Positions 5,510 to 36,408 of a DNA stretch of 64,000 nt are shown one piece after another. A program made the translations under genes and the position numbers. The notes below the pieces were generated by a model, which was not told where the DNA came from, made no database searches, and was given only the letters and a program-made list of their open reading frames with translations. Numbering within the stretch: position 1 is the stretch's first letter; each line of letters opens with the position of its first letter. This DNA comes from an uncultured bacterium (GTDB taxonomy: Bacteria > Omnitrophota > Omnitrophia > Omnitrophales > Aquincolibacteriaceae), in the NCBI GenBank assembly GCA_964434115.1, contig CAYSSX010000001.1, positions 18,197 to 82,196 of the forward strand, in the 5' to 3' direction.

Positions 5510-8347
5510 ATGAAAACTGCTGAATCCAATCCCTCAACCGTGGATCTTGCGCTCGCCGGACAAAGCCCTTGGCTTGATTCCATCAGCCGCCAGCTTTTGC
5601 GTTCCGGAGAATTGAAGTCTTTGATTCGCAATGCCAGGATCCTCGGCGTGACCTCCAACCCCACGATTTTCGAAATGGCCATCAGCAAGCCTGGCGGCGG
5701 TTATGAAAAAGACATTCAGAGTCTTGCCCGCAAGGGGGCCTCAACGCTCGCGATTTATGATGCCCTGACGATTTCCGATATTCAGGCGGCCTGTGATCTC
5801 TTCAAGGAAGTTTATTCGGGTTCCAAGGGCGAGCACGGTTTTGTCAGTCTTGAAGTGCGGCCTGATCTTGCCCATGACCAGGAACGCACGGTCGAAGAGG
5901 CTCTTAAACTCGTGAAAGCCGTGAACCGCCCAAACCTTATGATCAAAGTTCCGGCTACTCCCGCCGGCGTTCACGCGTTCCGCGATTTAACGGCGCTCGG
6001 CGTCAATGTGAACGTGACTTTGATTTTCACGCTTCAGCATTACACCGATGTTTTGAACGCGTATCTCGAAGGTCTTGAAGCCCGTAAAGCCAAAGGGCAG
6101 GACCTTTCCAAGGTGCATTCCGTGGCCAGTGTTTTTGTCAGCCGTTTTGATAACACCATTGACGGCCAGCTTTCACGCCTTCAGGAAATGGAATCCGATG
6201 ATGCCGAGCGTAAGGATCTGGAAAGCCTCAAGGGAAAAGCCGCGATCGCGAATTGCAAAGTGATTTATCAGGAATTCCGGAAAGTTCTGGAATCCGAACG
6301 CGTCCGCAAACTGCGCAATGCCGGTGCCACGGTTCAGAAAGTCCTTTGGGGCAGCACAAGTGTGAAAAATCCCAAATACCCGGATCTTCTTTATGTGGAT
6401 ACCCTGGTAGGCCCCGAGACGGTGAACACGATGCCGAGAGTGACGCTGGATGCGCTTCTTGATCACGGCTGTATCCGTCCGGGAACGGTGCTGGAAAATG
6501 CCGCCGGCGCCCGGCAGGTGATTGAGCGGTTGAAAGAGTGGGGGATCGATATTGATGAGACCGGCCAGAAACTTCAGCACGACGGCCTCATTGCTTTTGA
6601 AAATTCTTTTGATTCCCTGATGAAGACCCTGGAAATTGCGCGCGGGTCTTCCAAAAAAATCCCCGCCGTGAAAATTTCCTACACAGTCTCCAAAAAGACG
6701 CTCGCCTCGCTTCCGCTTCCTCAAATGGAGAAAGACCATTTTGTAGAGCGTTTTTATCACAATGATCCCACGATTTGGAAGGAAGACGCGGATCATCAAA
6801 AGGTGATTAAAAACCGCTTGGGGTGGTTGAAGTCGCCGGAGTGGATGCTCGGCCGGCTGTATGAAATTGATGAGCTTCAGGCGCAGGTGAAGAGTGAAGG
6901 CATCAAGGACATTGTTCTGCTGGGTATGGGCGGTTCAAGTCTTGCCCCGGAAGTGCTGAGCCTGATTTGCCGCACGTCTAAGACCCCGCGGTTCTATGTG
7001 CTGGACACAACCGACCCGGCAAGCGTGCTCGGAGTCCTGTCCAAAATTAAAATAAAGACAGCGCTCTTCATTGTTTCAAGCAAATCCGGTTCCACGGTTG
7101 AAACCATGTCGCAGTTTCAGTTTTTTTACGCCCATGCCCTTAAAGCGTATGGAAAAAAGGCGGACGCCGCGGTCTCGGCCGGCCGTCATTTCATCGCGAT
7201 CACGGATGAAGGATCCCGTTTGCAGCAGGAAGGCCATGCGAAACATTTCCGCAAGGTCTTTATCAATCCGTCCAATATCGGCGGCCGTTATTCCGCGCTC
7301 TCGCTTTTTGGGCTTGTTCCGGCCGCGGTCCTTGGAATTCCCGTCAGGAAGATCCTGGAGTCCGCGCTTGCGCTGTACAGCCAGTCTTCCAAAGAATTGA
7401 AGCTGAAAAAGAACGCGCCCTTTTATCTCGGAACGCTCATCGGTGTCCTTGCCCGTGAAGGCCAAGACAAGCTGACGATTCTTTCCTCAAAATCCCTGGC
7501 CTCTTTCGGCGCCTGGCTGGAACAGCTGATTGCCGAAAGCACGGGCAAAGAAGGAAAGGGCGTGGTGCCTGTGGACGGTGAGGCCCTGGGAACTCCTGAA
7601 GTTTACGGAGAGGACCGGGCTTTTCTGGTGCTTCGTCAAAAATCCGAAAAAGATGCGCGCTTTGAATCCCGTGTGAAGGCTCTTAAAAAAGCGGGCTTTC
7701 CCGTGATTGAAGTGGTTTGGCCGGATCCGTTGAGCATTGGCGCGGAGTTTCTGGCCTGGGAAATCGTGACCGTTGTTTCCAGCGCTGTGCTTGGGGTGAA
7801 TCCCTTTGATGAGCCCAATGTTAAGGAAAGCAAGGACAACACGACGCGCATTCTTGCCGAGGCCGAAAAACTGGGTGATATTCCTCAGCTGGTTCCGGTC
7901 ACGAAGATCCGTGACGAGATTGATTTCGCTTCTTTTTTTAAGGGGCTTCGTGAACCCAGTCCGTATGTGGCCTTCCTGGCTTACATTGACCGCACTCCGC
8001 AGACCGCAAAGGTTCTGGCCCGAATCCAGGCGCGGATGCGTGACGGAGTCAAACTTCCGGTTCTGATTGGTTTTGGACCGCGTTACCTTCATTCGATCGG
8101 ACAGCTTTACAAGGGCGGGCCTTCCAAGGGCGGTTTTATTGTTCTTTTGAACCAGGACCCGAAAGACGCGCCAATTCCGCACGCGAAGTTTACTTTCGCG
8201 CAGCTTAAAAAGGCCCAGGGGATCGGGGATGCCCAGGCTGCGGCGGACCGCGAGCGTCCGCTCCTGACTTTGGATCTGGGCCGTGACCTTTTGAAAGGCC
8301 TTGAAACTTTTGACAAGAAGCTTGCTGAGTACTTGAAAAAGAAGTAA
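5510..8347 (+). CDS. Bifunctional transaldolase / glucose-6-phosphate isomerase fusion (945 aa)
   Basis: The N-terminal ~370 aa is transaldolase-like (ILGVTSNPTIF, Schiff-base Lys region). The C-terminal ~550 aa is PGI-like (LLGMGGSSLAPEV, GGRYSALS). RBS aagggag lies upstream. Confidence 0.85.
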   Translation: MKTAESNPSTVDLALAGQSPWLDSISRQLLRSGELKSLIRNARILGVTSNPTIFEMAISKPGGGYEKDIQSLARKGASTLAIYDALTISDIQAACDLFKEVYSGSKGEHGFVSLEVRPDLAHDQERTVEEALKLVKAVNRPNLMIKVPATPAGVHAFRDLTALGVNVNVTLIFTLQHYTDVLNAYLEGLEARKAKGQDLSKVHSVASVFVSRFDNTIDGQLSRLQEMESDDAERKDLESLKGKAAIANCKVIYQEFRKVLESERVRKLRNAGATVQKVLWGSTSVKNPKYPDLLYVDTLVGPETVNTMPRVTLDALLDHGCIRPGTVLENAAGARQVIERLKEWGIDIDETGQKLQHDGLIAFENSFDSLMKTLEIARGSSKKIPAVKISYTVSKKTLASLPLPQMEKDHFVERFYHNDPTIWKEDADHQKVIKNRLGWLKSPEWMLGRLYEIDELQAQVKSEGIKDIVLLGMGGSSLAPEVLSLICRTSKTPRFYVLDTTDPASVLGVLSKIKIKTALFIVSSKSGSTVETMSQFQFFYAHALKAYGKKADAAVSAGRHFIAITDEGSRLQQEGHAKHFRKVFINPSNIGGRYSALSLFGLVPAAVLGIPVRKILESALALYSQSSKELKLKKNAPFYLGTLIGVLAREGQDKLTILSSKSLASFGAWLEQLIAESTGKEGKGVVPVDGEALGTPEVYGEDRAFLVLRQKSEKDARFESRVKALKKAGFPVIEVVWPDPLSIGAEFLAWEIVTVVSSAVLGVNPFDEPNVKESKDNTTRILAEAEKLGDIPQLVPVTKIRDEIDFASFFKGLREPSPYVAFLAYIDRTPQTAKVLARIQARMRDGVKLPVLIGFGPRYLHSIGQLYKGGPSKGGFIVLLNQDPKDAPIPHAKFTFAQLKKAQGIGDAQAAADRERPLLTLDLGRDLLKGLETFDKKLAEYLKKK

Positions 8348-15296: not shown

Positions 15297-15951
15297 AAAA
15301 AGAAACATCCAACCGGCCCAGCTTCAATCGGTTTACCGGGCGCTCCGGAAAAGATTCGGACACCAGAGCTGGTGGCCGGGAGAAACTCCCTTTGAAGTCA
15401 TGGTCGGAGCCATCCTGACTCAGAACACGGCCTGGACAAATGTTGAAAAGGCGATTTTGAATTTAAAACAGGCGGAGGCATTAACGCCGCAGTCCATGAG
15501 GAAACTTTCTGCGGCAGAGCTGTCCCAGCTGATCCGTCCGGCCGGCTATTTCAATGTCAAAGCCCAGAGGCTTCACCACTTTCTTGATTTTCTTTTTTCC
15601 GAATATGACGGCCGTCTAGAAAAGATGTTCCTGGAAAAAGGGGAAACGCTCCGGAAAAAGCTTTTGGCCGTGAAGGGGATTGGTCCGGAAACCGCGGATT
15701 CCATGCTGCTTTATGCGGCTCAGAAGCCTTTTTTTGTGATCGATGCCTATACACGGAGAATTTTTTCACGCCATGGTTTAGCCCCTTTGAAGGATGACTA
15801 TCACCAGTGGCAAAAGCTCTTTACGGGAGCCCTTCCGAGAAGCCGCCCTCTTTTTAACGATTATCATGCCCAGATCGTTCAATTAGCCAAAAAGCACTGC
15901 AAAGCCAGTCAGATGCTTTGCGATGGCTGCCCCCTTCAGACCTTCTACTAG
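15265..15951 (+). CDS. Endonuclease III-related HhH-GPD base-excision DNA glycosylase family protein
   Basis: It has an HhH-GPD core (VGAILTQNTAWTNVEKA...LAVKGIGPETADSMLLYA) and a C-terminal Cys cluster (HCKASQMLCDGC). The start is ambiguous (15232 or 15265). Confidence 0.75.
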   Translation: MKSSKNFHSPKKRNIQPAQLQSVYRALRKRFGHQSWWPGETPFEVMVGAILTQNTAWTNVEKAILNLKQAEALTPQSMRKLSAAELSQLIRPAGYFNVKAQRLHHFLDFLFSEYDGRLEKMFLEKGETLRKKLLAVKGIGPETADSMLLYAAQKPFFVIDAYTRRIFSRHGLAPLKDDYHQWQKLFTGALPRSRPLFNDYHAQIVQLAKKHCKASQMLCDGCPLQTFY

Positions 15952-16122
15952 CCGTAATGTTTAACCCTAATGTTTATAATGACTTATGGATAACTATCGA
16001 AATTCAATGCTGTCATTAATTATCAAGAACACCCTTAACCTAACAATTAATGTATAAAAAGTAACAAAAATATCGCCCCATCCATTGTCAACAAATCAAT
16101 CGGGGGCTATACTTTTTAACGT

Positions 16123-16596
16123 ATGGAAGAGAAGCCCAAAAAGAGATTAGGAGAGATCCTGATTGAAGACGGTCTTTTGTCCCCCGAGGGACTGCAGGAA
16201 GCGCTTGCCCATCAGAAAAAAGAGGGCGGGTTGATTGGCCAGATCCTGATCCAGCTTGGGCATATGACCGAAGAGGACTTGATCAGCGCTCTTGGCAGGC
16301 AGCTTCGAATGCCCTATTTGCCGCTGAATCAGTATGCCGTGAACATTGAAGGCGCGCGGGTGCTGGAGGGGGACTATTGCCGGAAGAATATGCTTCTGGT
16401 TTTTGATGCGGATGACAAGCGGGTTTTTCTCGCGGTCAGCGATCCGCTGAATACGCAGGCCCTTGAAGAGGTCCGCGCGAAGCTCAACCTTAAGCCGCAG
16501 GTTTTTCTTTCAACGCCGTCAGAAATTTTAAACATGCTGGACCTTGTTTTTGCCCGCGACAACACGTCGCCCTCACTTAAGAAAAAAGCAGGCTGA
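16123..16596 (+). CDS. Stand-alone MshEN / T2SSE_N (GspII) domain protein, a predicted c-di-GMP-binding protein
   Basis: It is 157 aa and consists only of the N-terminal domain found in GspE/PilB/MshE ATPases. It carries the 24-residue MshEN c-di-GMP motif RLGxxLIxxGLLxxxxLxxALxxQ (RLGEILIEDGLLSPEGLQEALAHQ, nt ~16144-16215). Confidence 0.75.
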   Translation: MEEKPKKRLGEILIEDGLLSPEGLQEALAHQKKEGGLIGQILIQLGHMTEEDLISALGRQLRMPYLPLNQYAVNIEGARVLEGDYCRKNMLLVFDADDKRVFLAVSDPLNTQALEEVRAKLNLKPQVFLSTPSEILNMLDLVFARDNTSPSLKKKAG

Positions 16597-16597
16597 T

Positions 16598-18349
16598 ATG
16601 GCTTCCAGAGACAGTCATTTTGCGGACCTCCAAAAAATCCTGCTCAATGAAAATGTGCTTTCTGCCACGGATATGCATGAAGCCCTCCGCGAGCAGTCGG
16701 AAACGCATGAACCGCTGATTGAAATTTTGATCCGTTTGGGAAAATGCGATGAGAAAAAACTGGTGCAGGTTTTAAGCCACGAATTTGGTTTTACGGCGGT
16801 CAACCCGGCGGTTTTCGCAGTCGAACCCGCGGTGATCTCGCTGGTTCCCAAAAAACTCGCGGAAAAGTACACGGCCCTTCCGATTTCACTTTTTGAAAAA
16901 ACACTCACCATTGCCTTTGCCAATCCCATGAACTTTCAGGCCACTGACGAATTGCACGCGGTGACAGGCTACCGCGTCAAGCCCGCCATTGCGCAGGCGA
17001 AGGTGCTTAAAAAATATATCCAAAAATATTACTCTGAAACCGGATCCGCGAACGCTGCGCAGCCTGCTCCCCAGGTGGATTACAACCAGGAAATGGATGA
17101 TATCGTCAAGGCGATTGAAGACGAGCATTCGGAGGTGGAGCTTCAGACCTCGGATTTGATGAAGGTGGCTTTTGAAACGCCGGTCATCAAACTGGTAAAC
17201 CGGCTTTTGATTGAGGGGATTAAGCGGCGTGCCAGTGACATTTTTATTGAACCCTGGGAAAATCATGTGCGGGTGCGCGCCCGCGTGGACGGGCTTTTGG
17301 AAGAAGTGGTCAGGCCGCCTAAATCGCTTGCGTCCGCGATTGTCTCGCGCATTAAAGTCATGAGCGATTTGGACATTGCCGAGCACCGCATTCCCCAGGA
17401 CGGGCGATTCAAGGTCAAAGCCGAAAAACGGCAGGTGGATATGCGTGTTTCCGTTCTGCCGACTACTTTCGGAGAAAAGGTGTGTCTTCGTATTTTGGAC
17501 ACCACGGCGCAGAGCCATGATATTTCAAAGCTTGGGTTTAATGAACGCGAACAGCAGATTATCCGTGACTCCTCGCGCAAACCGCACGGCATGATGCTTG
17601 TCACCGGTCCGACCGGAAGCGGTAAAACCACCACGCTGTATTCCGTGCTCAAATACCTGGATGCCCCGGATGTGAATATTACGACCGTCGAAGATCCGGT
17701 GGAATACCAGCTCCCCGGGATCAATCAGGTGAATGTGAAGGACGGGGTGGGGCTTACGTTTCCGGCTTCCCTGCGTTCTATTCTCCGCCAGGACCCGGAC
17801 ATTATTCTCATCGGTGAAATCCGTGATAATGAAACGCTTGATATCGCGGTCAAGGCCGCGCTGACCGGGCACCTTGTGCTCAGCACCCTGCACACCAATG
17901 ACGCAGCCAGCTCGATCACGCGTATGGCCAACATGGGGCTTGAACCTTTTCTGATTGCCTCGACCGTGATCATGATTTCCGCGCAGCGCCTGCTCCGGCG
18001 GTTGTGTTCCAAATGCCGCAGTCCTTATGACGTGGAGGTTTCCGTGCTCCGCGATTTGGGCGCCGACACCTCCCGCACGACGTTTTATAAACCCAAGGGC
18101 TGCCCGAGCTGCCGCGGAACCGGTTACACGGGCCGCACGGTGATCACGGAACTTCTCGAAATGGAGCCGCCGATTTTGGAACTCATTATGAAAGGCGCGA
18201 CTTCGGAAGCGATTAAAGTGAAAGCCCGCGAACTGGGCATGACGACGCTGCGTGAATGCGCGCTGCGCAAAGCCGCGGACGGGGACACCTCTCTGGAAGA
18301 GGTTTACCGGGTTACGGCCGAGGATTCCGGGAAAGGGGGCGAGGAATGA
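16598..18349 (+). CDS. pilB: Type IV pilus assembly ATPase PilB / GspE-family (paralog 1)
   Basis: It has an N-terminal GspII-like domain, Walker A (GPTGSGKTTTL), Asp and His boxes, and a tetracysteine motif (CSKCRS...CPSCRGTG). The start is immediately after the upstream stop. Confidence 0.9.
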   Translation: MASRDSHFADLQKILLNENVLSATDMHEALREQSETHEPLIEILIRLGKCDEKKLVQVLSHEFGFTAVNPAVFAVEPAVISLVPKKLAEKYTALPISLFEKTLTIAFANPMNFQATDELHAVTGYRVKPAIAQAKVLKKYIQKYYSETGSANAAQPAPQVDYNQEMDDIVKAIEDEHSEVELQTSDLMKVAFETPVIKLVNRLLIEGIKRRASDIFIEPWENHVRVRARVDGLLEEVVRPPKSLASAIVSRIKVMSDLDIAEHRIPQDGRFKVKAEKRQVDMRVSVLPTTFGEKVCLRILDTTAQSHDISKLGFNEREQQIIRDSSRKPHGMMLVTGPTGSGKTTTLYSVLKYLDAPDVNITTVEDPVEYQLPGINQVNVKDGVGLTFPASLRSILRQDPDIILIGEIRDNETLDIAVKAALTGHLVLSTLHTNDAASSITRMANMGLEPFLIASTVIMISAQRLLRRLCSKCRSPYDVEVSVLRDLGADTSRTTFYKPKGCPSCRGTGYTGRTVITELLEMEPPILELIMKGATSEAIKVKARELGMTTLRECALRKAADGDTSLEEVYRVTAEDSGKGGEE

Positions 18350-20067
18350 TCGCGGCTTTTTCAAAAGATCAGATCGCCGAGAAATTAGTACAGACCGGGC
18401 GGGTAACCGCGGAACAGATCCGTGAACTGGCCCCGCAGGCGCTGAAAGAAAAGAAAACCGTTTTTCAGCTTCTCGTGGAACGCGACATTGTGAAAGATGA
18501 TGAAATGATGGAGTTCCTGGGATCCGAGCTGGGCATCCCGACCTTGAACCTCCCGGTTTTTAAAGTTACGAAAGACGTTTTGAAGATGGTTCCGCCCAAA
18601 GTCGCGGACCGGTATCAGGTGCTTCCGCTGGCCCGTATCAAGTATCTCCTGACCGTGGCCACAAGCAATCCCTTTGACCTTCTGATGAGGGATGACCTCA
18701 AGGGACTCACGCGCTGCGATGTCGAACTTGTGCTGGCCACGCCCAAAATGATTGCGCACGCGCTCGACCTGTACTATTCCGAAGGCACGAACCTGGATGA
18801 AATCATTGAAGGGATTGACGAAGACGCGCTGGAAGTGATCCGGGAAGAAAAGACCGACGACAAAGGCGGGGGCGCCGCCGCGGCGGGCAAGGGGGTTGAC
18901 GATGCCCCGGTGGTCCGCATGGTGAATCTGATTCTGGACGGGGCGCTCAGGTCCCGCGCTTCGGACATTCATTTTGAACCCTATGAAAAAGAATTCCGGG
19001 TAAGGTACCGCATTGACGGCGCGCTCCGGGAATCCTTTTCCCACACGCGCGACCTTTACCCCTCGCTGGTGGCGCGCGTGAAAATTATTTCCTCTTTAGA
19101 CATTACGGAAAAGCGGGTGCCTCAGGACGGACGTTTCCGTGTGCGGATGACCGGCAAAGAAGTCGACTTCCGCGTCTCGGTCCTGCCGACGTATTACGGA
19201 GAAAAAATCGTGCTGCGTGTTCTGGATAAAGCCGGACTCAAATCGGGGCTGGATAAATTGGGTTTTACCGAGAAGCCCACTTCGATCATTGGGGAGGCCA
19301 TCAAACATCCTTACGGCATGATGCTGATCACGGGGCCTACGGGAAGCGGTAAATCCACTTCTTTGTATACGATTATGGGCACGCTCAATACTCCGGACCG
19401 GAATATTATGACGATTGAAGATCCGGTGGAGTATCAGGTTGAAGGGATCACGCAGACCCAGGTGTTGTCCGAAGTGGGGCTGACTTTTGCCAGCGGCCTG
19501 AGATCGCTTCTGCGTCAAAGTCCTGACATTGTGCTGGTCGGCGAAATCCGCGACGGAGAGACCGCGGACATTGCCGTGAAAGCCGCTTTGACCGGTCACC
19601 TTGTTTTCAGCACGCTTCACACGAACAGCGCTGCCGGTGCGGTGACGCGTTTGATTGATATGGGAGTGGAACCTTTTTTGATTGCCTCATCGCTGGTGTG
19701 TGTTGCGGCCCAGCGTCTCATGAAACGGGTTTGCCAATTCTGCAAGGCCCCGTATCAGGTCCCTGCGGATGTCCTCAGGCGCTGCAAAATTGACGCGAAA
19801 GAAATTGAGGGTGTCACGGCCTACAAAGGCACGGGCTGCGCCAAATGCAATCAATCCGGTTATTACGGACGGCTCGGGACGATTGAAGTGATGAAAGTGG
19901 ACAGTGAGATCAGAAGTTTGATCATTGCCCGGAAATCAAGCAATGTCATTCATGAAACTGCCGTTAAAAAAGGAATGGAAACACTTTTTGAAAACGCCTT
20001 CGGGCTTTTTAAACAGGGGGTCACGACGCTGGAAGAGGTCCTGCGCGTGACGGCCTCGGACAGGTGA
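18346..20067 (+). CDS. Second PilB / GspE-family secretion ATPase (paralog 2), translationally coupled by an ATGA overlap
   Basis: It has an N-terminal GspII-like domain, Walker A (GPTGSGKSTSL) and a tetracysteine motif (CQFCKA...CAKCNQSG). It is about 45-50% identical to paralog 1 across the ATPase core. Confidence 0.9.
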   Translation: MIAAFSKDQIAEKLVQTGRVTAEQIRELAPQALKEKKTVFQLLVERDIVKDDEMMEFLGSELGIPTLNLPVFKVTKDVLKMVPPKVADRYQVLPLARIKYLLTVATSNPFDLLMRDDLKGLTRCDVELVLATPKMIAHALDLYYSEGTNLDEIIEGIDEDALEVIREEKTDDKGGGAAAAGKGVDDAPVVRMVNLILDGALRSRASDIHFEPYEKEFRVRYRIDGALRESFSHTRDLYPSLVARVKIISSLDITEKRVPQDGRFRVRMTGKEVDFRVSVLPTYYGEKIVLRVLDKAGLKSGLDKLGFTEKPTSIIGEAIKHPYGMMLITGPTGSGKSTSLYTIMGTLNTPDRNIMTIEDPVEYQVEGITQTQVLSEVGLTFASGLRSLLRQSPDIVLVGEIRDGETADIAVKAALTGHLVFSTLHTNSAAGAVTRLIDMGVEPFLIASSLVCVAAQRLMKRVCQFCKAPYQVPADVLRRCKIDAKEIEGVTAYKGTGCAKCNQSGYYGRLGTIEVMKVDSEIRSLIIARKSSNVIHETAVKKGMETLFENAFGLFKQGVTTLEEVLRVTASDR

Positions 20068-20073
20068 TGACTT

Positions 20074-21300
20074 ATGCCAGCGTTTGAATATCTCGTCAAG
20101 GACAAGACCGGGAAGGACCAGACCGGGGTTCAGGAGGCGCCTGATGTAGGAACATTGATCGGCACCCTCCGCTCGCAGGGGTTCATTATCGTCCGGGTGA
20201 CGCAGATCAAAGAGTCCAAGGTCTTCAGCCTGAGTAAGGGGCCGGCCAAGAAAAAAGGCAAAAGCGGCGGGGTCAAACTGGATGACCTTGTGGTGTTTTC
20301 AAGGCAGATGGCCACCTTGGTGTCCGCAGGTATTCCGTTGATTCAGGCTTTGGACATTCTTTCCGAGCAGGTGGAGAAAGAAAGTTTCAAAGTCATCCTT
20401 AAAGAGATGCACCAGGATGTGCAAAGCGGAAAAAGCTTTTCCGAGTCCATGCAGAAACACACCAAGGTTTTTTCCGTCCTGTTTATCAACATGGTTCGGG
20501 CCGGGGAATCGAGCGGAAGCCTGGAGGAAATCCTCGACCGTGTTGCCAATTATTTTGAAAAAACCAGCGCGCTGCAGAAAAAAGTCAAATCGGCCATGAT
20601 GTATCCGATCTCCGTGACTTCGATCGCGTTTCTCATTACTTTCGGCATGATGACTTTTGTGATTCCGAAATTCGCGGAAATTTTTGAAGGCTTGAACGCG
20701 AAGCTTCCCACCATCACCCAAACCCTGATTGATGTCAGCCGTTTTATGGCGGCTAACTGGGTGCTTGTGTTAGGGGGGATCGGGGGAGCGATTTTTGGAT
20801 GGCTTCAGTTCATTAAAACACCTCCCGGCCGGCTGGCCTGGGATTCTTTCTCCATCAAGATGCCGGTTTTTGGCCCCTTGCTTCTAAAAGTCGCGGTCAG
20901 TAAATTTTCCCGAACGCTTGCGACCCTGGTTCGAAGCGGCGTTCCGATTCTCCAGTCTCTTGAAATCGTGGCGCAGACTTCCGGTAACCGGCGCTTGGAA
21001 ATTGTCATTACCTCCCTCATGGAATCGGTTAAAAAGGGGGAAACGATTTCCAGTCAGCTCATCAAAAGCGATGTTTTTCCTCAAATGGTGGTCCGTATGA
21101 TCGCGGTCGGTGAGGAAACCGGTGAAATGGAAGAAATGCTGATGAAAATCGCGGACTTCTATGACACCCAGGTAGACGCGGCTGTGGACGGTTTGACTTC
21201 CCTTATTGAACCTTTGATTATCGTCTTCCTGGGGGTTGTCATCGGCGGTATTGTCATCGCCCTGTTTCTTCCGATTCTTACCATTACCCAGCATATTTAA
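20074..21300 (+). CDS. pilC: Type IV pilus platform protein PilC (GspF family)
   Basis: It has two T2SSF repeats with TM helices (SKGPAKKKGKSGGVKLDDLVVFSRQMATLVSAGIPL...). It is 408 aa. Confidence 0.9.
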   Translation: MPAFEYLVKDKTGKDQTGVQEAPDVGTLIGTLRSQGFIIVRVTQIKESKVFSLSKGPAKKKGKSGGVKLDDLVVFSRQMATLVSAGIPLIQALDILSEQVEKESFKVILKEMHQDVQSGKSFSESMQKHTKVFSVLFINMVRAGESSGSLEEILDRVANYFEKTSALQKKVKSAMMYPISVTSIAFLITFGMMTFVIPKFAEIFEGLNAKLPTITQTLIDVSRFMAANWVLVLGGIGGAIFGWLQFIKTPPGRLAWDSFSIKMPVFGPLLLKVAVSKFSRTLATLVRSGVPILQSLEIVAQTSGNRRLEIVITSLMESVKKGETISSQLIKSDVFPQMVVRMIAVGEETGEMEEMLMKIADFYDTQVDAAVDGLTSLIEPLIIVFLGVVIGGIVIALFLPILTITQHI

Positions 21301-21577
21301 TAGAGAGGGTGTCGCCCGGATAGGTGCTTCCCTTGGTTTTTCGAGCCAAAAAGTCACACAGGGAGTAAAGGCTAAAATATATTTTTCTGTCCCTTTTGTC
21401 AGTTTTTAAGACGTCTCCGGGCTGTAGGCAAGGCGGTATAAGGGATTCGAGTTTTTAAACCCCCTAAAAAATGTATAGGATTAAAATGTATTATAGTTTT
21501 GTGAGAATTTGCCGAAACCAGTTTTGGGTGGTTATACTACTTGTAGTCGCGATGAAATTCTAATGGAGGTGTTAGCG

Positions 21578-22069
21578 ATGTTGAATCAAATCAGAAAGAA
21601 TCAAAAAGGTTTTACGCTCGTTGAAATCATGATTGTAGTTGCGATTATTGGTTTACTTGCCGCGATTGCAATTCCTAACCTGCTGCGCGCCAGAATGAAC
21701 GCAAACGAAGGTGCTATGAAGACCGACCTTCGCGCATTCAGCTCTGCGAATGAAAGCTTTCGCGCAGCCCAGAACCCCCCGCAGTATGCGGCGAACGTTG
21801 CAGCTTTGACCGGTGCGACGCCCCCGTATATTGATGCTTCATGGGGTGCTGCAGGCGGTAAGCATGGCTTTACGCTCGCGTACGCTGGCGGTGGTGCCGG
21901 TAACGCGAACACGTTCTCCATGCTTTCCACCCCGACGGTTGCCAACCAGACGGCTACCAATACCTATTGCGTGGACCAGACGGGTGTTATCGTCGGTTCC
22001 GTGAACGGTGCTGGTGCTCCTGCTGGCGCTGCGACGGGCTGCACGGGTGGTACGGCAATCGCTGGTTAA
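21578..22069 (+). CDS. pilA: Type IVa major pilin (PilA-like prepilin). The start is adjusted to the ATG after the ggagg RBS; the ORF track starts at 21509.
   Basis: It has a class III signal MLNQIRKNQKG|FTLVEIMIVVAIIGLLAAIAIP with Glu5. A C-terminal Cys pair (YCVDQ...TGCTGG) suggests a disulfide loop. The C-terminal third is Gly/Ala/Thr-rich. Confidence 0.85.
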   Translation: MLNQIRKNQKGFTLVEIMIVVAIIGLLAAIAIPNLLRARMNANEGAMKTDLRAFSSANESFRAAQNPPQYAANVAALTGATPPYIDASWGAAGGKHGFTLAYAGGGAGNANTFSMLSTPTVANQTATNTYCVDQTGVIVGSVNGAGAPAGAATGCTGGTAIAG

Positions 22070-22176: not shown

Positions 22177-23301
22177 ATGAAAATCTCAGTGCCTTCATTT
22201 GACCTTCAGAAAATCAAAGCCATGATTCCGCAAAAATATCTTCCAGCCGCTTTGCTGGCAGGGCTTTCTCCCAAAGCCGCGCCGAAGGTCACGGGACCGG
22301 TCCGTGTTTTGGCTTGTGATTACGGTGCTTCCAAAATCATTCTCCTTGAAGCCGTCAAAGACGGCGGAAAAATCACGCTGGAGCGTTTTGACCTCATGCC
22401 CCGTTCTGAAGAGCCGGGGAAAGCCGCGGCCCTCATTAAGGAAACAATCCAGAAAGGTTACGGATCGACCCGGGTCAGGGTGTCCGTGAAAGGCCAGAGC
22501 GTCATCGTCCGCTTTGTCCAGTTTCCGAAAATGAAAACCGAAGACCTTCGCAGCGCGATTAACTACGAGGCCGAGAACTACATTCCTTTTAAACTCGATG
22601 AAGTGATCCTCGATTTTTATGTTCTGGAAGAATCCGCTCCCGGGGCGAACGGCGGGGAAATGATGAATGTCCTCCTCATTGCCGTGAAAAAGGAAGAGAT
22701 CTACCCCTTGATCAAGGATTTTCAGGACGCGGAGCTGCAGGTGGAGCTGATCGACATTGACACCCTCGCGGCGATCAATGCCCTGGAGTTTTTGTACCCC
22801 GAAGAATTCAAAAGTTCGGTGGCCCTCATGGACCTTGGAAAAGAGGTTTCAAGCCTGAGCGTGATCCGGGACGGTAAGCCGCGTTTTATCCGGGACATTT
22901 CCTTTGGCGGTATTGATATTCAAAAGCGTCTGCGCCGCAAGCTGGGGCTTAGCCTCGCGGACGCTGAAAAAATCATCGGTCATCTGGACGAAATTTCACC
23001 CGAAGCGCTTCAAGTTCTTAAGGAAGGCTATGAAACCTTGTGCACGGACCTTAAAGTGACCCTCGATTATTACCAGGGGCAGACCCCGGATGGAAAACCT
23101 GTTGAGAAGTTCTTTTTGGCCGGGGGATCGGCGAATCCGAAATGGATGGTTGAAACCTTCAACGCGCATCTCGGGGTTCCGGTGCAGGCCATTGAAGTTC
23201 TCTCAAGAGTTGAATTGGCGCCTGCGATCGATAAGGCTTTGCTGGAAAAGAACCAGAGGCTGCTCGCGGTGGCCCTTGGGCTTTGTCTGAGGCACCCATG
23301 A
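22177..23301 (+). CDS. pilM: Type IV pilus assembly protein PilM (actin-like ATPase fold)
   Basis: It is 374 aa and shows the PilM pattern (VSVKGQSVIVRFVQFPKM...NYEAENYIPF). Confidence 0.9.
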   Translation: MKISVPSFDLQKIKAMIPQKYLPAALLAGLSPKAAPKVTGPVRVLACDYGASKIILLEAVKDGGKITLERFDLMPRSEEPGKAAALIKETIQKGYGSTRVRVSVKGQSVIVRFVQFPKMKTEDLRSAINYEAENYIPFKLDEVILDFYVLEESAPGANGGEMMNVLLIAVKKEEIYPLIKDFQDAELQVELIDIDTLAAINALEFLYPEEFKSSVALMDLGKEVSSLSVIRDGKPRFIRDISFGGIDIQKRLRRKLGLSLADAEKIIGHLDEISPEALQVLKEGYETLCTDLKVTLDYYQGQTPDGKPVEKFFLAGGSANPKWMVETFNAHLGVPVQAIEVLSRVELAPAIDKALLEKNQRLLAVALGLCLRHP

Positions 23302-23879
23302 TTGAGATCAATCTGCTTCCTGAAGAATTCCGGATTAAAGAGAAGGTCCCTCAAAAAGAAGTGCCGGTAGTTAAGATTGCTCTCGGGGCCGTGGTTTTCT
23401 TTGTGCTTCTCAGCATCCTGTTTTATTTCGATTATCTGGGCGCCAAGAACAAGCTTAAGAAAGTCGATGCGCAGTGGAAGCTTGTGCAGCCGCAATCCAA
23501 GACATTGAATGACCTTCAGTCTGAAGTAGAGAATATTTTAAAAACAGAGCGGGATTTTCTTCAGCGCTTTGTGGCTGCAGAGCTGCCTTTGACCAGTGTT
23601 CTTCAATGGCTTTCGGATGCGCTTCCCGAAAATGCCTGGCTGACCAGTGTCCGGCTTGAAAACAACCCGGAAAAACACAGTCTGGTGGTCCGGGGGCTTT
23701 GCCTGCCTTCCAAGAGTCAGTCAAGCATTGAGTTCATTGAAAGTTATCTGCATATCCTGAAAGAGAAGATGCCTGAAACACGGCTTTCCTTGACCACGGC
23801 CCGGCAGGTCCAGGAGCAGGTCGAGGTCACGCAGTTTACGGCCATTTTTGACTGGCCGTCAGCGGGAGGAAAAAAATGA
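23298..23879 (+). CDS. pilN: Type IV pilus assembly protein PilN
   Basis: It begins MIEINLLPEEF, has a single TM helix and a periplasmic coiled-coil. The ATGA start overlaps the pilM stop. Confidence 0.85.
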   Translation: MIEINLLPEEFRIKEKVPQKEVPVVKIALGAVVFFVLLSILFYFDYLGAKNKLKKVDAQWKLVQPQSKTLNDLQSEVENILKTERDFLQRFVAAELPLTSVLQWLSDALPENAWLTSVRLENNPEKHSLVVRGLCLPSKSQSSIEFIESYLHILKEKMPETRLSLTTARQVQEQVEVTQFTAIFDWPSAGGKK

Positions 23880-24481
23880 AGCCGATTAATCAAATGACCA
23901 CCGCGGATCTTCTTGAGCTGGCGCAGAAGATCGATAAAAAGACCTGGATCAAAATCGGTATCGGTTCCGCTGTGGCGCTTATCTTTATCATTTTCATCGT
24001 TTGGCCCGCATGGTTTGAAGGGGCCAAGGTGAAAGGCGAGATTGCCTCGATTGAGAATCAGATTGTCAGGCTTCAAACCCTGAAGCGCAATGAAAAGACC
24101 TGGCTGCAAAATAAAGCGGAGTACAGCCAGTACATCCAGGACGTAAAGGCCCGGCTTTTTTTCCCGGGAGAGGCCTCGCTGCTTTTAGGCAAGATTGCCA
24201 AACTCGCGGATGAAAGCAAGGTTTCGATTATTGCATCCACTCCGAGGGATGCCCAGGCGAATTTCCCCAAGCCGTATGACGCCAGTTTTAAAGCAGACCT
24301 CTACGACTTCACGGTGGAGGGGGGCTATCACGAAATGGCCGCCTTTATCAGCCACATTGAAAACTACCCGCAGATCCTGAGGGTGGAACTTTTTCAATTG
24401 AGTCCTAACGAAGAGAACGCGGCAAAGCACCTTGCGGAGATCACCCTTTCCGCGGTTTCCAAAAAAGAGGGCGTGAAATGA
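23876..24481 (+). CDS. pilO: Type IV pilus assembly protein PilO
   Basis: It has a single TM helix (IGIGSAVALIFIIFIVW), a coiled-coil and a PilO C-domain. It is translationally coupled to its neighbours. Confidence 0.85.
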   Translation: MKPINQMTTADLLELAQKIDKKTWIKIGIGSAVALIFIIFIVWPAWFEGAKVKGEIASIENQIVRLQTLKRNEKTWLQNKAEYSQYIQDVKARLFFPGEASLLLGKIAKLADESKVSIIASTPRDAQANFPKPYDASFKADLYDFTVEGGYHEMAAFISHIENYPQILRVELFQLSPNEENAAKHLAEITLSAVSKKEGVK

Positions 24482-24903
24482 AGATTCTTCTTCAAAAATC
24501 CCAAGAGAAGCCGATCTTTACTGTGGAACGGGCGCGTACCTGGTTTAAGATTCTGGGGATGCTAGTGATTTTGATCAATCTTACTTTTCAGCTAGCATTC
24601 GCAGAAAAAATTCAGTATGATAGCGCCGCTAAACGGGATCCGATGATTCCGCTGATAGGACCCAACGGCCTGATTGCTCAAAAAGCCATGAGGTCTGACT
24701 TCAATATCGAGGGCATCATTCTCGATCCTAAAGGCGGTTCGGTGGTCGTGATCAACGGGGAAGTTTACAAAGCCGGTGATCAGATCAATGAAGCTACGGT
24801 AGTTCAGATCCTTCAGGACCGAATTCTTCTCTCTCAGGACGATGAAGAAAAGACCGTTTGGCTGAGAGAAGAAATCATTAAAAAGGAAACACCCAAAGGA
24901 TGA
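24478..24903 (+). CDS. pilP: Type IV pilus assembly protein PilP-like
   Basis: It has a signal-anchor helix followed by a PilP-like beta domain (RDPMIPL...GIILDPKGGSVVVINGEVYKAGDQI). It sits between pilO and pilQ. Confidence 0.7.
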   Translation: MKILLQKSQEKPIFTVERARTWFKILGMLVILINLTFQLAFAEKIQYDSAAKRDPMIPLIGPNGLIAQKAMRSDFNIEGIILDPKGGSVVVINGEVYKAGDQINEATVVQILQDRILLSQDDEEKTVWLREEIIKKETPKG

Positions 24904-26516
24904 TTTTAAGGTTGCCTCGCTTGGCCTTTTTTAAGCCCCTGGTACTCCCGCTTTTTTCCCTACTCTTTCTGATGCCTTCTGCCTTTGCTCAGCAGCCCGC
25001 GCCTAAAACTGACACGGCTTCAGTTCCCGCGGATGCCTCGCCGTTAACGCCGGTTTCAGACGATGCCAAGAACAATGTCACGCTTGATTTTAAAGAAGCG
25101 GATATCAACACCGTGCTTCGGGTCATGAGCCTGAAAAGCGGCATGAACATTGTGGCTGGACCTGAAGTGCAGGGGAATGTGACCATACGTCTTGAGAATG
25201 TCCATTGGCAGAAGGCGCTTGATGTTCTTCTTCGTACTTATGGCTACGTTTATGAACGCGATGAAAACGTTATCCGCGTGACCACCCGTGATAACCTGGC
25301 GCAGGAACCCTTAGTGACCAAGACCTTTGTTTTGAATTATTCCAAAGCTACGGAAATTCAGGACGCCGTGAAAGACATGCTCACGGAACGCGGGAGAATC
25401 AAGATCGCGGAGCGCGTGAACATGCTCGTGGTGACGGATATTCCGACCAATCTTTACCGCATTGAAGAAGTGGTGGCCAAGCTGGACAAAATTACGGCCC
25501 AGGCCTATATCGATTCCAAGATCGTCAAGACGGCCATGGGTGAGACGGAGAATTTGGGCATTGACTGGAATCTTGATGCAAGAGCTACAGGGTCTTCCAG
25601 GCCGACAACCTTTCCTTTTTCAGACAGCGGACAGGGTGAAAATATCAGCCCTGCATTGCGTCAGTTTTTCCCTTTTGTGAATACCGACCCAGGTACGGCC
25701 GTTGTGAATCCTGGTGACAACAGAAGTTTTCCGGCACCTAAGATCACGGCCACAGGCACATACAGCTACGGCACCCTTGATTTCTCTAGATTCAGTTCAA
25801 TTCTACAGATGCTGCAGTCCCGAACGAACACAAAGGTTGTCTCAAATCCCAGAATTGTGGTTCTCAACAACAATACCGCTGAAATCCAGGTGGGTGTGGA
25901 TTTCCCGATTCCGAAATATGAACGTAATGAAAATACCGGGGTTTTGACGGTCAGCGGCCTTGATTACCGCAAAATCGGCGTTATCCTGGGTGTGACTCCG
26001 CACATCAATTCCGCGGAAGAGATTCTTGTCGAGCTGAAGCCTGAAGTCAGCTCACAGGGCGCCACCATTGATTATGACGATTTGCAGGCAGTATCCTTCA
26101 ATATCACAAAAGCAGTAACGCAAGTTTTGATTCGCAGCGGTGAAACCATTGCGATTGGCGGTTTGTTAACAGATGCAGCTGGAAACGCAGAAAATAAAGT
26201 CCCTTATTTGTCAGAAATACCCCTTGTAGGAAAACTATTCAGATCAAAAAGACAAACAGCAGGAGATTCGAACAGTAAAGCAGAAACACTTTTTTTCATT
26301 ACGGTGACCATGGTGGATACGGAAGGTCAGCCAACGGGTAAAGAGGCGGAAAAAATAAGAAAAAAAATCGGCCAAGATAAAGCCGCACAGGCGTCCGAAG
26401 AAGACGCTGCCGCTCAGCCCGTGAAAAAAGACGAGACGACACAGACGCCCGAGACGGACCCGGCACAAAGCCCGGCCTCTCCGGAAAGTCAAGACACTCA
26501 ACCGGCAGCAGCTTGA
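24900..26516 (+). CDS. pilQ: Type IV pilus secretin PilQ
   Basis: It has a signal peptide, secretin N domains and the secretin C-domain (IPLVGKLFRSKRQT). There is an extra ~75-aa acidic low-complexity C-terminal tail. Confidence 0.9.
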   Translation: MILRLPRLAFFKPLVLPLFSLLFLMPSAFAQQPAPKTDTASVPADASPLTPVSDDAKNNVTLDFKEADINTVLRVMSLKSGMNIVAGPEVQGNVTIRLENVHWQKALDVLLRTYGYVYERDENVIRVTTRDNLAQEPLVTKTFVLNYSKATEIQDAVKDMLTERGRIKIAERVNMLVVTDIPTNLYRIEEVVAKLDKITAQAYIDSKIVKTAMGETENLGIDWNLDARATGSSRPTTFPFSDSGQGENISPALRQFFPFVNTDPGTAVVNPGDNRSFPAPKITATGTYSYGTLDFSRFSSILQMLQSRTNTKVVSNPRIVVLNNNTAEIQVGVDFPIPKYERNENTGVLTVSGLDYRKIGVILGVTPHINSAEEILVELKPEVSSQGATIDYDDLQAVSFNITKAVTQVLIRSGETIAIGGLLTDAAGNAENKVPYLSEIPLVGKLFRSKRQTAGDSNSKAETLFFITVTMVDTEGQPTGKEAEKIRKKIGQDKAAQASEEDAAAQPVKKDETTQTPETDPAQSPASPESQDTQPAAA

Positions 26517-29444: not shown

Positions 29445-30038
29445 TTGGGCCTCTTCGATAAACTAAAAAAGTTTCTCTTCGGTCCTTTTAAGCCTTCCCG
29501 GAAAAAACGCAGCAAAAAAAAGCGCTCCAAGCGCCGCGCCTCTTCACCGGTCCGCAAAAAAAGCGGGACCTCCACGAAAACGGTCCGGAAAGCCCCCTCT
29601 CAAAAGCCGCGGACACCCAGGCCATTGCCGAAGAAAAAACTTCTTGCTGGTAAAACTCTAAAGCCTGCCCTGAAACCCGTGGTTTTGAAGAAAACCAGCA
29701 AGGGTTCAGCGTCTAAACCGGCCCTTAAAAAGACCGCCCCAAAAGCCGGAAAAATTTTAAAATCCGTTCCTGAATCGCCGGGCATTTATCTGGGTGCAAT
29801 TACTCATTACTTTGCCAAAGTTCAGGCTGCCGTAATTCCGCTTGAAGAAACCCTTAAGGTAGGGGATAAAATAGTCATTCACAACGCTGCGGGTCCGCTT
29901 TTCAAGCAGCCGGTCAAGTCCATCCAGATCAACCGTATTCCGATTGATGAGGGACGGCCGGGCGAGGAAGTGGGGCTTGAAGTGCTGAAACACGTCAGTG
30001 TCGGGGACAAAGTTTACCGTCTTAAAGCCAGCCGTTAA
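29445..30038 (+). CDS. Hypothetical protein with a Lys/Ala/Pro-rich histone-H1-like N-terminal tail and a C-terminal EF-Tu domain-2-like beta-barrel
   Basis: The N-terminal ~110 aa is low-complexity basic (KKRSKKKRSKRR...KPALKKTAPKAGK). The C-terminal segment VGDKIVIH...IDEGRPGEEVGLEV...VGDKVY resembles the translation-protein beta-barrel (compare EF-Tu D2 LDEGRAGENVGVLL). Confidence 0.5.
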   Translation: MGLFDKLKKFLFGPFKPSRKKRSKKKRSKRRASSPVRKKSGTSTKTVRKAPSQKPRTPRPLPKKKLLAGKTLKPALKPVVLKKTSKGSASKPALKKTAPKAGKILKSVPESPGIYLGAITHYFAKVQAAVIPLEETLKVGDKIVIHNAAGPLFKQPVKSIQINRIPIDEGRPGEEVGLEVLKHVSVGDKVYRLKASR

Positions 30039-30449: not shown

Positions 30450-30947
30450 ATGAAAAAGTTTTTTGCAGTTTTGTTTTTGGGAATGTCTGTTTTTTTACAG
30501 CGCGCAGAAGCGACCACAGGAGTGGTTGAAGAAGACGGCCGTAAAGTCGGAACCTGGGTGGAAAATGACGGCCAGGACCGTAAGGAAAAGATCAAAGTCA
30601 AAAAACCCGAAGAAAGCGAAGCTCCTGCTCTGACCGGGGCGGCAGTTCCTCTTGAGAGTGAGTTAACAAGAGAGGAAGCTGCTTTGGAAATGGGGAAGCG
30701 GCAGAACTGGGGCATTGTGAAGGGCATGACGCGGGAAAAAGTCGAAGAGGCTGCGGCTTTGCGGGGGTTCAGGCATGAGAATGAGCATACCGAAACCATC
30801 ATGGATTCCTTCGGAGCGCCGCGGGGTTTTTTAGTGTATGAGTACCGCTTTAAGACCGAGCATTTTGAGCATCTGAAAAAAGTTTATTTTGAACCCACGA
30901 ATATGCTCGTGGCTCAGATTTTGGAAACCCAGGAACCCCGGCCCTAA
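30450..30947 (+). CDS. Secreted hypothetical protein
   Basis: It has a signal peptide (MKKFFAVLFLGMSVFLQRAEA) and no recognisable domain. Confidence 0.5.
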   Translation: MKKFFAVLFLGMSVFLQRAEATTGVVEEDGRKVGTWVENDGQDRKEKIKVKKPEESEAPALTGAAVPLESELTREEAALEMGKRQNWGIVKGMTREKVEEAAALRGFRHENEHTETIMDSFGAPRGFLVYEYRFKTEHFEHLKKVYFEPTNMLVAQILETQEPRP

Positions 30948-30953
30948 AAAACG

Positions 30954-32282
30954 ATGATGCTTTCCGAGAAACCTCTTTTCCGTATTGCGGTGTCGATCGC
31001 GGAGCGTTTGAAGCTTCACGGCCACACGGCGTATTTTGCCGGGGGCTGTGTCCGTGACTTTTTGATGGGGCGGGAGCCCGAGGATGTGGATATTGCCACA
31101 TCCGCGGTCCCTGACGAGATTGAAAAGATTTTTCCGCATACGGTTCCGGTCGGAAAACAATTCGGGGTTATTCTGGTGATGGAAGGGGAGCTGCCTTTTG
31201 AAGTTGCGACTTTCCGCACCGAAGGCGGTTACCAGGACGGCCGGCATCCGACTCAAGTCAGCTTTACCGGCCCTGAGGAAGATGCCTCCCGCCGCGATTT
31301 TACCGTGAACGGAATTTTTTATGATCCGCATTCCGGAAAGGTCATTGATTTTGTGGGTGGGGAAGCGGATCTCAAGCTCAAGACCCTCCGGGCGATCGGT
31401 GATCCGGAAAAGAGATTTGAAGAAGACAAACTCAGGCTGATGCGGGCCGTGCGTTTTGCTTCTTCGCTCGGTTTTGAAATCGAAGATAAAACCTGGGCTG
31501 CTTTGTGCCGGAAAGCCTCCGAAATTGTTTGCGTGAGTCCGGAGCGGATCCGTGAAGAGCTGGTTAAAATGCTGACCCGCCCCGGCGCGGCAAGGGGATT
31601 TCAGCTTCTTTCCGAATGCGGGCTGATGAAGGTCATTCTGCCTGAAATCGAAGCCATGAAAGGGGTTGCCCAGCCGCCGGAATTTCACCCCGAAGGGGAT
31701 GTTTTTGTACACACGAAGCTGCTCCTTGAAAAACTCAAGGACCCCACGGCGACGCTTGCGCTGGCCGCGCTTTTTCATGATGTGGCCAAACCCCGGACTT
31801 ATTCGGTGGATGAAAACGGCAGGATCCGTTTTAACCAGCACGCTCCGCTGGGTGCGAGAATGACCCGCGAGATCATGAAGAGACTCCGGTTTTCGAATGA
31901 TGAAATTGACAAGGTTTCTTCTTCGGTGGAGCATCACATGACGTTTAAAGATGCTCCGAAAATGAGAGAGGGGAAACTGAAGCTCTTTATTTCGCGCCCG
32001 AATTTCAGCGAAGAGCTTGAGCTTCACAGGATTGACTGTCTTTCGGCCTCCGGGAACCTTGAAAATTACGAGTTTATCCGCAGGAAGCTGGAAAGTTATG
32101 CCAGCGAACCTTTGCGCCCGAAACCGATTCTGACGGGACACGATTTGATTGCGCTGGGTGCTAAACCAGGGCCAGAGATGAAGCTCGTTCTTGACGAGGC
32201 CTATGAGCTTCAGCTTGAAAAGAAGCTGACAAGCCGGGAGGAGGCCCTTCAATGGGCCAAAACCCGGGTGGGGAATCCCTAA
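30954..32282 (+). CDS. cca: CCA-adding tRNA nucleotidyltransferase with an HD domain
   Basis: It has the Pol-beta nucleotidyltransferase head (GGCVRD...DVDIAT), the tRNA NT motif RRDFTVNG and an HD domain (LFHDVAKP). Confidence 0.85.
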   Translation: MMLSEKPLFRIAVSIAERLKLHGHTAYFAGGCVRDFLMGREPEDVDIATSAVPDEIEKIFPHTVPVGKQFGVILVMEGELPFEVATFRTEGGYQDGRHPTQVSFTGPEEDASRRDFTVNGIFYDPHSGKVIDFVGGEADLKLKTLRAIGDPEKRFEEDKLRLMRAVRFASSLGFEIEDKTWAALCRKASEIVCVSPERIREELVKMLTRPGAARGFQLLSECGLMKVILPEIEAMKGVAQPPEFHPEGDVFVHTKLLLEKLKDPTATLALAALFHDVAKPRTYSVDENGRIRFNQHAPLGARMTREIMKRLRFSNDEIDKVSSSVEHHMTFKDAPKMREGKLKLFISRPNFSEELELHRIDCLSASGNLENYEFIRRKLESYASEPLRPKPILTGHDLIALGAKPGPEMKLVLDEAYELQLEKKLTSREEALQWAKTRVGNP

Positions 32283-32336
32283 AGCTTTCGCCGGATTGAC
32301 CCGATCAAACAGAGTGTTCACCATTAAGGAGGCTTT

Positions 32337-36407: not shown

Positions 36408-36408
36408 T

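Follow-up and report, generated by a model that had tools for sequence, protein, structure and literature searches.

A 64,000-nucleotide (nt) stretch of DNA from an uncultured bacterium of the Omnitrophota (contig CAYSSX010000001.1, positions 18,197 to 82,196; hereafter the window) contains a type IVa pilus gene cluster headed by a small open reading frame (ORF), located on the + strand at positions 16123..16596 and beginning with ATG. Its product of 157 amino acids (aa) corresponds to one complete MshEN domain, with no other domain detected in profile searches or in a structure model, and the gene is directly followed by those of two PilB-like ATPases with MshEN folds of their own. From domain matches, the structure model and synteny, we predict that the small protein is a receptor for cyclic dimeric guanosine monophosphate (c-di-GMP). 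More specifically, and with a probability of roughly 0.6, we propose that it is a free-standing MshEN-family receptor, dedicated to the two-motor type IVa pilus of Omnitrophota and acting on it in trans.

An earlier note on this DNA had described the stand-alone MshEN domain and suggested comparing it with domain profiles and with V. cholerae MshE. The ORF was present as described, and these comparisons confirmed the domain far beyond chance. The NCBIfam profile NF053729 ('c-di-GMP_motif') matched residues 8-60 across model positions 1-53 of 53 (63.4 bits; cutoff 38), and Pfam MshEN (PF05157) matched residues 61-145 (54.2 bits; cutoff 23.1). Sequence alignment with the V. cholerae MshEN domain (PDB 5HTL) gave an E value of 1e-15, and the best sequence match in the PDB was PilF from Thermus, with four matching stretches. 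An AlphaFold (AF2) model built on 85 homologues (predicted local distance difference test, pLDDT, 87.9) contained an N-terminal four-helix bundle (helices 9-15, 21-34, 38-44 and 50-61) and, after it, a sheet of three strands with helices. The strands (91-96, 100-105 and 124-129) lie in the MshEN_C alpha/beta subdomain, which is T2SSE_N1-like and spans residues 61-145 (16303..16557, + strand). In Foldseek searches, the top match for the model was MshEN in complex with c-di-GMP (5HTL; E 4e-11, template modelling score 0.67-0.74), and the next ones were PilF's GSPII-B domain with c-di-GMP, the PilB-N/PilZ complex of X. citri (7LKM) and XpsE-N. The tandem motif, the four-helix bundle with its T2SSE_N1 subdomain and the ligand-contacting residues, by which the MshEN family is recognized in sequence and structure, were all found in the protein.

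The c-di-GMP site of V. cholerae MshE (VcMshE) is defined by two 24-residue motifs plus a 5-residue spacer (PMC5013675), and the published motif consensus has been extended to (R/K/L)LG..., in full (R/K/L)LGxxhhxxGhhxxxxLxxxLxxQ (PMC11731258). The window protein contains a predicted c-di-GMP site of 53 residues (16144..16302, + strand), which coincides with the full-model match to NF053729. It consists of motif I, RLGEILIEDGLLSPEGLQEALAHQ (residues 8-31, nt 16144-16215), the spacer KKEGG, and motif II, LIGQILIQLGHMTEEDLISALGRQ (residues 37-60, nt 16231-16302). The complete 24-residue motif I reported in the earlier note was thus borne out, with its contact residues intact, but its author had missed the spacer and motif II, which complete the site. 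Of the tandem motif's 22 key positions, the protein has 21. Its contact residues comprise R8, L9, G10, L24, L28, Q31, I38, G39, L53, L57 and Q60, the counterparts of VcMshE R9, L10, G11, L25, L29, Q32, L39, G40, L54, L58 and Q61. At the position of VcMshE R38 it has L37, a Leu also present in PilF's high-affinity GSPII-B domain. Additionally, alignment to 5HTL indicated that D107, in the MshEN_C subdomain, is the equivalent of the ligand-contacting D108 of VcMshE; neither D107 nor P108 varies within the close family.

Across the family, G10, G39, Q31 and Q60 are invariant, and motif II opens with a Leu in 90% of the members. The G11L variant of VcMshE shows no detectable binding of c-di-GMP, single Leu-to-Ala changes cut binding more than tenfold, and several natural MshEN domains with such residue changes were shown not to bind (Wang 2016, PMC5013675). 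Likewise, L196 of PilF GSPII-B, the Leu of motif II, stacks on guanine, and its change to Arg weakens binding fourfold (PMC11731258). Judging from the conserved contact residues and the modelled fold, the free protein is quite likely to bind c-di-GMP.

The situation is different in the two PilB-like ATPases encoded immediately downstream, which are both on the + strand: ATPase1 (583 aa; 16598..18349), starting 1 nt after the MshEN stop codon, and ATPase2 (573 aa; 18346..20067), with its true start at 18346 and its ATG overlapping the ATPase1 stop codon (ATGA). Both have an MshEN fold of their own (Pfam 61.5 and 68.8 bits, respectively). For each group of proteins we counted how many of 22 key motif positions are retained, taking Gly-3 and Gln-24 of both motifs as the four diagnostic residues; gapless profile-profile (hhalign) alignments confirmed the motif register in both ATPases. 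In the window, ATPase1 retains 14/22 key positions; its motif I carries R8>D, G10>Q and G17>N, and its motif II G39>I and Q60>E. ATPase2 retains 13/22, motif I being changed by G10>A and Q31>A and motif II by G39>F, G46>D and Q60>E. The contrast extends to the whole phylum: the free MshEN proteins averaged 20.1/22 key positions and kept the four diagnostic residues in 78 out of 79 cases, whereas ATPase1 (mean 14.7/22) and ATPase2 (mean 14.1/22) did not keep all four in any of the 70 and 64 proteins scored, respectively. Mean column identity over the N-terminal 80 residues was 60% for the free MshEN, as compared with 43% and 29% for the ATPases.

The NF053729 profile was rejected as a means of separating binders from non-binders, because at E<=0.01 it still matched most ATPase N-termini (64/70 for ATPase1 and 45/64 for ATPase2, although it did not match ATPase2 from the window), and the key residues were used instead. 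The claim that the N-domains of the ATPases are clearly degenerate therefore holds at the key residues, and phylum-wide, but less so by the curated hidden Markov model (HMM), where ATPase1 lies near the cutoff. Of the ATPase motifs that had been quoted, both were present; that of ATPase2 was one residue out of register, although it is degenerate in either register. From these residue losses and the published mutants, the ATPases probably cannot sense c-di-GMP themselves.

As motors, the two ATPases appear intact. Their T2SSE matches reached 461.6 bits for ATPase1 and 455 bits for ATPase2, and their scores with TIGR02538 (652.6 and 640.5 bits, respectively) fell just below the equivalog cutoff of 675.65. 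Each retains Walker A and B, the Asp and His boxes and the Cys4 zinc motif, in the window and phylum-wide, indicating that two competent extension-type motors are a conserved feature. The two tandem paralogues (16598-20067 in the window) occur in the same order throughout the Omnitrophota loci L002-L079.

To what extent the split layout is conserved was evident from several searches. A protein search yielded 173 stand-alone homologues, of which the 120 listed were all 141-171 aa long; those with source names were almost all from metagenome-assembled genomes (MAGs) of Candidatus Omnitrophota, and were annotated as 'hypothetical' or 'PilB', the latter in some entries of the Joint Genome Institute (JGI). 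A scan of loci from one genome per species produced 80 loci, 79 of which have a stand-alone MshEN; the remaining one, from Clostridium tagluense, codes for an ordinary fused PilB. The 79 loci come nearly all from Omnitrophota MAGs, although some bear no label beyond 'uncultured bacterium' or 'Planctomycetia' and one bears that of 'Candidatus Eisenbacteria', and comprise the clade of the window (L001-L030) and more distant clades (L031-L079). In all 79, and as far as the contig extends, the gene order is MshEN-ATPase1-ATPase2-PilC-pilin(s)-PilMNOPQ. The free MshEN is 144-171 aa long in 78 loci and 105 aa in one, and the distance from its stop codon to the start of ATPase1 is 3 nt at the median, with an interquartile range of 1-15. 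Over 78 loci, the three possible frames of one gene relative to the other are represented 31/25/22, with TAA, TGA and TAG all in use as stop codons. This free variation of gaps, frames and stop codons rules out a frameshift, a pseudogene or recoding.

A reciprocal scan of metagenome contigs with ATPase1 found the free gene in 4/4 close relatives with upstream DNA, and in none of about 15 unrelated PilB/GspE loci. The split layout, described in the earlier note as uncommon, is thus uncommon across bacteria generally, but it is the rule in the related clusters of Omnitrophota, as revealed by the survey for stand-alone MshEN genes upstream of pilB that the note had itself suggested. Outside Omnitrophota, a search of 1.84 billion proteins returned many single-MshEN proteins of 131-180 aa, nearly all on short contigs, and one of them was a partial GspE. 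The layout is much more general than the single window implied and, given its invariant synteny and tight coupling, the free protein likely belongs functionally to the pilus machine.

A further connection to c-di-GMP appeared in the more distant clades, where 39 of the 40 loci with enough upstream DNA have genes for a GGDEF-domain protein and a PilT-like ATPase directly 5' of the MshEN gene. The first codes either for a HAMP-GAF-GGDEF membrane protein, of about 470 aa, or for a HAMP-GGDEF protein of about 298 aa, and the second for a PilT-like retraction ATPase of about 354 aa, both within 1-3 kb (for example, L036:1589-4094). These neighbours tie the pilus module to c-di-GMP signalling. The cluster genes included no homologue of PilZ, EAL or FimX, and Omnitrophota generally encode GGDEF and PilZ proteins (bioRxiv 10.1101/2023.11.21.568195). 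A match to 'RVGGDEF' in L031, found by regular expression, turned out to be MreB and was discarded. Separately, a 1341-aa ORF with a GGDEF-like N-terminus is located between pilT and the free MshEN gene in Candidatus Kappaea frigidicola (L058:4954-8979).

From these data we propose a mechanism in four steps. The N-terminal four-helix bundle would bind one molecule of c-di-GMP through the two tandem motifs, as suggested by the conservation of contact residues and the fold. The receptor would be co-produced with the two PilB-type extension ATPases; their genes abut or overlap, suggesting translational coupling and matched amounts. The ATPases, which keep the MshEN fold and have lost Gly and Gln residues for the nucleotide, would be non-sensing. 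Finally, once liganded, the free domain may permit or adjust extension of the pilus by acting in trans on the motor or the platform, possibly through contact of its MshEN_C subdomain with an ATPase N-domain or PilM.

The candidates for this contact, which include the ATPases onto which the earlier note had modelled the free domain as docking, can be ranked only in part. Gene adjacency favours ATPase1. Structural precedent, from the EpsE-N1/EpsL and PilB-N/PilZ complexes, would allow either an ATPase N-domain or PilM, and by analogy with the fold matches 2BH1 and 4PHT PilM is an equally plausible partner. We also carried out an exploratory analysis of rate covariation on loci L002-L079, treating the two clades separately and removing the shared background distance. 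For the close and the distant clades, respectively, the partial r with the free MshEN was 0.53 and 0.33 for the N-domain of ATPase2, 0.24 and -0.11 for that of ATPase1, and 0.36 and -0.01 for PilM.

Several observations weigh against a c-di-GMP receptor acting in trans on ligand-blind motors. The rate covariation, itself a weak method, hints at the N-domain of ATPase2 as the partner, and not at that of the adjacent ATPase1. In 52% of the family motif I opens with Gln, which is not among the R/K/L residues that have been tested, although Arg occupies this place in the window protein. The ligand is uncertain, in that MshEN is also able to bind cyclic GMP-AMP (cGAMP; PMC5013675). Regarding the ATPases, the isolated N-terminus of ATPase1 from the window scored 40.1 bits with NF053729, above the cutoff of 38 (35.8 bits for the full-length protein), and a few ATPase1 orthologues (L031, L051) keep 20-21 of the 22 positions; some residual binding of c-di-GMP by the ATPases is therefore conceivable. 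The GGDEF signature of the cluster-linked proteins is canonical in only 9/42 cases, being A/SGDEF in four, GGDDF in two and degenerate in the rest, so that in many lineages the neighbour would be a GGDEF-fold protein and not a cyclase. Furthermore, the clade of the window (L001-L030) has neither a GGDEF nor a PilT gene at the cluster, and the housekeeping synteny upstream is conserved instead. No GGDEF, EAL, HD-GYP, PilZ or PilT gene was found in the 64-kb window, in a rough motif screen of all ORFs and a comparison of about half of them with Pfam or NCBIfam; EAL-like and HD-GYP-like flags from the motif screen did not hold up. Likewise, a tblastn search of the window with the cyclase and PilT of the L036 cluster matched only the two PilB-like genes.

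Among other explanations for the data, the free MshEN could be a decoy or adaptor for the platform, acting on PilM (or PilC) to set, depending on c-di-GMP, which PilB paralogue or PilT engages. MshEN_C is the fold by which GspE binds the cytoplasmic domain of GspL, the homologue of PilM, and a free copy could occupy or bridge this docking site; indeed, the EpsE-N1/EpsL and GspE/GspL complexes (2BH1, 4PHT) matched residues of the C-subdomain in Foldseek. One platform also has to serve both extension ATPases and, in other clades, PilT as well, and the rates of MshEN and PilM are correlated in the close clade. However, this correlation is gone in the distant clades, and it is to ATPase1, not PilM, that MshEN is tightly coupled in translation. 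We consider this explanation unlikely, though it deserves to be kept in mind.

Alternatively, an ancestral (MshEN)2-ATPase could have lost its first domain to the free gene, whose product would be a fixed subunit, stably reassembled with ATPase1, with nothing happening in trans. ATPases of the types (MshEN)2-, (MshEN)3- and (MshEN)4-T2SSE do exist, and only some of their domains bind ligand (PMC5013675 Supplementary Table 4; PMC11731258); clostridial (MshEN)2-T2SSE proteins and the three-GSPII PilF of Thermus, the latter being the best sequence match in the PDB, could serve as models, and the gap to ATPase1 is as short as 1-3 nt. Nevertheless, the free domain is about 31% identical to each ATPase N-domain, and those two are 37% identical to each other, indicating that the free gene is an old, separate lineage and not the product of a recent fission of ATPase1. 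Moreover, the separation is fixed in 79/79 loci, in all three frames, with no fused form seen. Such an origin is improbable in our view, and it concerns ancestry and stoichiometry in a way that is compatible with a receptor acting in trans.

It is also conceivable, but very improbable, that the fold was kept and the sensing of c-di-GMP lost, the protein being a structural or assembly factor of the pilus motor or responding to another ligand such as 3'3'-cGAMP. This would agree with the clusters of the window's clade, which have no cyclase nearby, with the degenerate signature of most cluster-linked GGDEF proteins elsewhere and with the reported binding of cGAMP. Conversely, the nucleotide-contact residues are near-invariant over about 30-90% sequence divergence, which is hard to explain without a ligand, and Omnitrophota do have GGDEF and PilZ proteins. 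An artefact of annotation, whether a pilB with a frameshift or truncation or an ORF arising by chance, is suggested only by the small size of the product, its similarity to the N-terminus of PilB and some JGI labels, and is ruled out by the homologues of similar length, the synteny in 79/79 loci, the independent stop codons in all three frames and the complete N-domains that the downstream ATPases have of their own.

In the window, the MshEN gene was verified as the first pilus gene of the cluster, as originally described. It is preceded by an AT-rich gap of 171 nt and, before that, by an HhH-GPD repair gene; the upstream genes are housekeeping (MiaB-like, CinA, LigT and HhH-GPD). A promoter-like site, TTGTCA-17-TATACT (16085..16113, + strand), agrees with the consensus at 10/12 positions and ends 9 nt before the ATG, although two such sites were found as compared with 1.2 expected in shuffles, which makes it weak evidence. 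It contains the only promoter-like -10 element there, no Shine-Dalgarno sequence was visible, and from its position the leader would be very short or absent; the first gene of the operon may thus be translated from a leaderless or near-leaderless mRNA. The upstream region (15850-16250) gave no Rfam match at E<=1, that is, no c-di-GMP riboswitch or other RNA element. Similarly, no Rfam family reached its gathering score in the 64-kb window with models that included tRNA, rRNA and riboswitches, in the absence of a dedicated tRNA scan.

The rest of the cluster, all on the + strand, codes for the remaining components of the pilus. Downstream of ATPase2 are the genes for the platform protein PilC (20074..21300; Pfam T2SSF, 230.8 bits, two repeats) and for a type IV pilin (21509..22069), with Pfam N_methyl matching residues 29-55, so that its real start is probably downstream of that of the longest ORF. 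They are followed by genes for PilM (22177-23301; Pfam PilM_2, 158 bits), PilN (23283-23879; weak Pfam match), PilO (23876-24481; Pfam 24 bits, cutoff 22), a PilP-like protein (24478-24903; assigned from position only) and the secretin PilQ (24900..26516; Pfam Secretin, Secretin_N, STN and GspD N0).

Elsewhere in the window we found an exopolysaccharide locus of the XrtA/PEP-CTERM type (36340-41685), whose genes encode an exporter resembling Wza, a TIGR03007 chain-length determinant, an ATPase associated with PEP-CTERM (TIGR03015), a tyrosine autokinase and an epimerase. The tyrosine kinase (39623-40678) was considered as a second c-di-GMP protein and rejected, as it is without the MshEN_N segment of EpsG-type kinases. 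Downstream of this locus, at around 52-64 kb, several ORFs have glycosyltransferase-like starts; they were judged from these starts and not from a domain scan. A 945-aa ORF (5510-8347) corresponds to a transaldolase (Pfam TAL_FSA) fused to a phosphoglucose isomerase (PGI). ORFs of 197 aa (29445-30038, + strand) and 497 aa (30831-32324, - strand) had no Pfam match; the latter is among the few long minus-strand ORFs, the window otherwise coding almost entirely on the plus strand.

The free MshEN shares features with several known systems. V. cholerae MshEN (5HTL) and the c-di-GMP-binding PilB proteins of M. xanthus, C. perfringens (PilB2) and Chloracidobacterium have the same two-subdomain fold, the same 24+5+24 motif, the Gly/Leu/Gln contacts, the D108 equivalent and the association with a type IV pilus extension motor. 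In those proteins, however, the domain is fused to the ATPase that it regulates, whereas the window encodes it as a polypeptide of its own, and its ATPases carry MshEN copies predicted to be ligand-blind. The nearest structural analogue is PilF from Thermus thermophilus, with three GSPII/MshEN domains of which GSPII-B binds c-di-GMP with a dissociation constant of 6 nM and GSPII-A does not bind (PMC11731258). Both systems have more than one MshEN per motor, only some of them ligand-competent, as well as the Leu of motif II (L196 in PilF). Nevertheless, PilF contains all its domains in one chain with a single ATPase, whereas here the competent domain is free, in an ORF separate from those of the two ATPase paralogues in 79/79 loci.

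The nearest functional analogue of the proposed sensing in trans is the FimX-PilZ-PilB system of X. citri and Pseudomonas, whose PilB-N/PilZ complex was among the fold matches. In X. citri, the N-domain of PilB does not bind c-di-GMP, and the signal is received in trans via docked small proteins (PMC8389850). The likeness is functional only: there the receptor is a degenerate EAL protein (FimX) with an adaptor of PilZ fold, whereas here the receptor itself would be MshEN. Acinetobacter baylyi also uses two extension ATPases, PilB and TfpB, on one pilus, and the small protein CpiA targets one of them (PMC11656802); CpiA is, however, an unrelated, strain-specific inhibitor without nucleotide sensing, and the gene for the free MshEN is conserved as part of the core.

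MshEN receptors without an ATPase domain have been described by Wang et al. 2016 (PMC5013675), who reported that PA3740 from P. aeruginosa (MshEN-xT2SSE_N1) and cce_1044 from Cyanothece ((MshEN_N)2) bind c-di-GMP. These two proteins have other architectures; neither is reported to head a pilus operon, and no ligand-blind ATPases paired with them are described. The architectures that they listed combine MshEN with T2SSE ATPases (in one to four copies), glycosyltransferases, REC, HD-GYP and other domains, and do not include a plain free MshEN heading a pilus operon with ligand-blind motors. Likewise, a 2024 review of PilB cofactors (PMC11656802) does not mention such a protein, a survey of Omnitrophota (PMC10066038) noted their type IVa pilus clusters and not their ATPases or c-di-GMP, and we found no description of this arrangement in the published literature. 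Stand-alone signalling domains are a familiar theme, on which a free MshEN heading a pilus operon with predicted ligand-blind motors is a variation.

Only two or three receptor domains for c-di-GMP are widespread, MshEN among them, and the Omnitrophota system would show that it can be used as a stand-alone adaptor, in the manner of single-domain PilZ proteins. How a ligand at the N-domain of PilB alters the behaviour of the motor is still unclear (PMC11656802), and the natural separation of a 17-kDa sensor from ligand-blind motors would allow the sensing and motor steps to be studied separately. Our results also correct the annotation of genes now labelled 'hypothetical' or 'PilB'. For the bacteria themselves, whose type IVa pili are thought to mediate attachment to the host (PMC10066038), the receptor would add a regulatory layer to these pili. 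A broader and rather speculative possibility is that Omnitrophota have permanently split the sensing of c-di-GMP from the motor, with a free and probably high-affinity MshEN that chooses between, or gates, two ATPases, accompanied in many clades by an often dead HAMP-GAF-GGDEF protein and PilT. If true, these ultra-small predatory or parasitic bacteria would have a self-contained signalling module for host attachment, parallel to FimX-PilZ-PilB and built from different parts.

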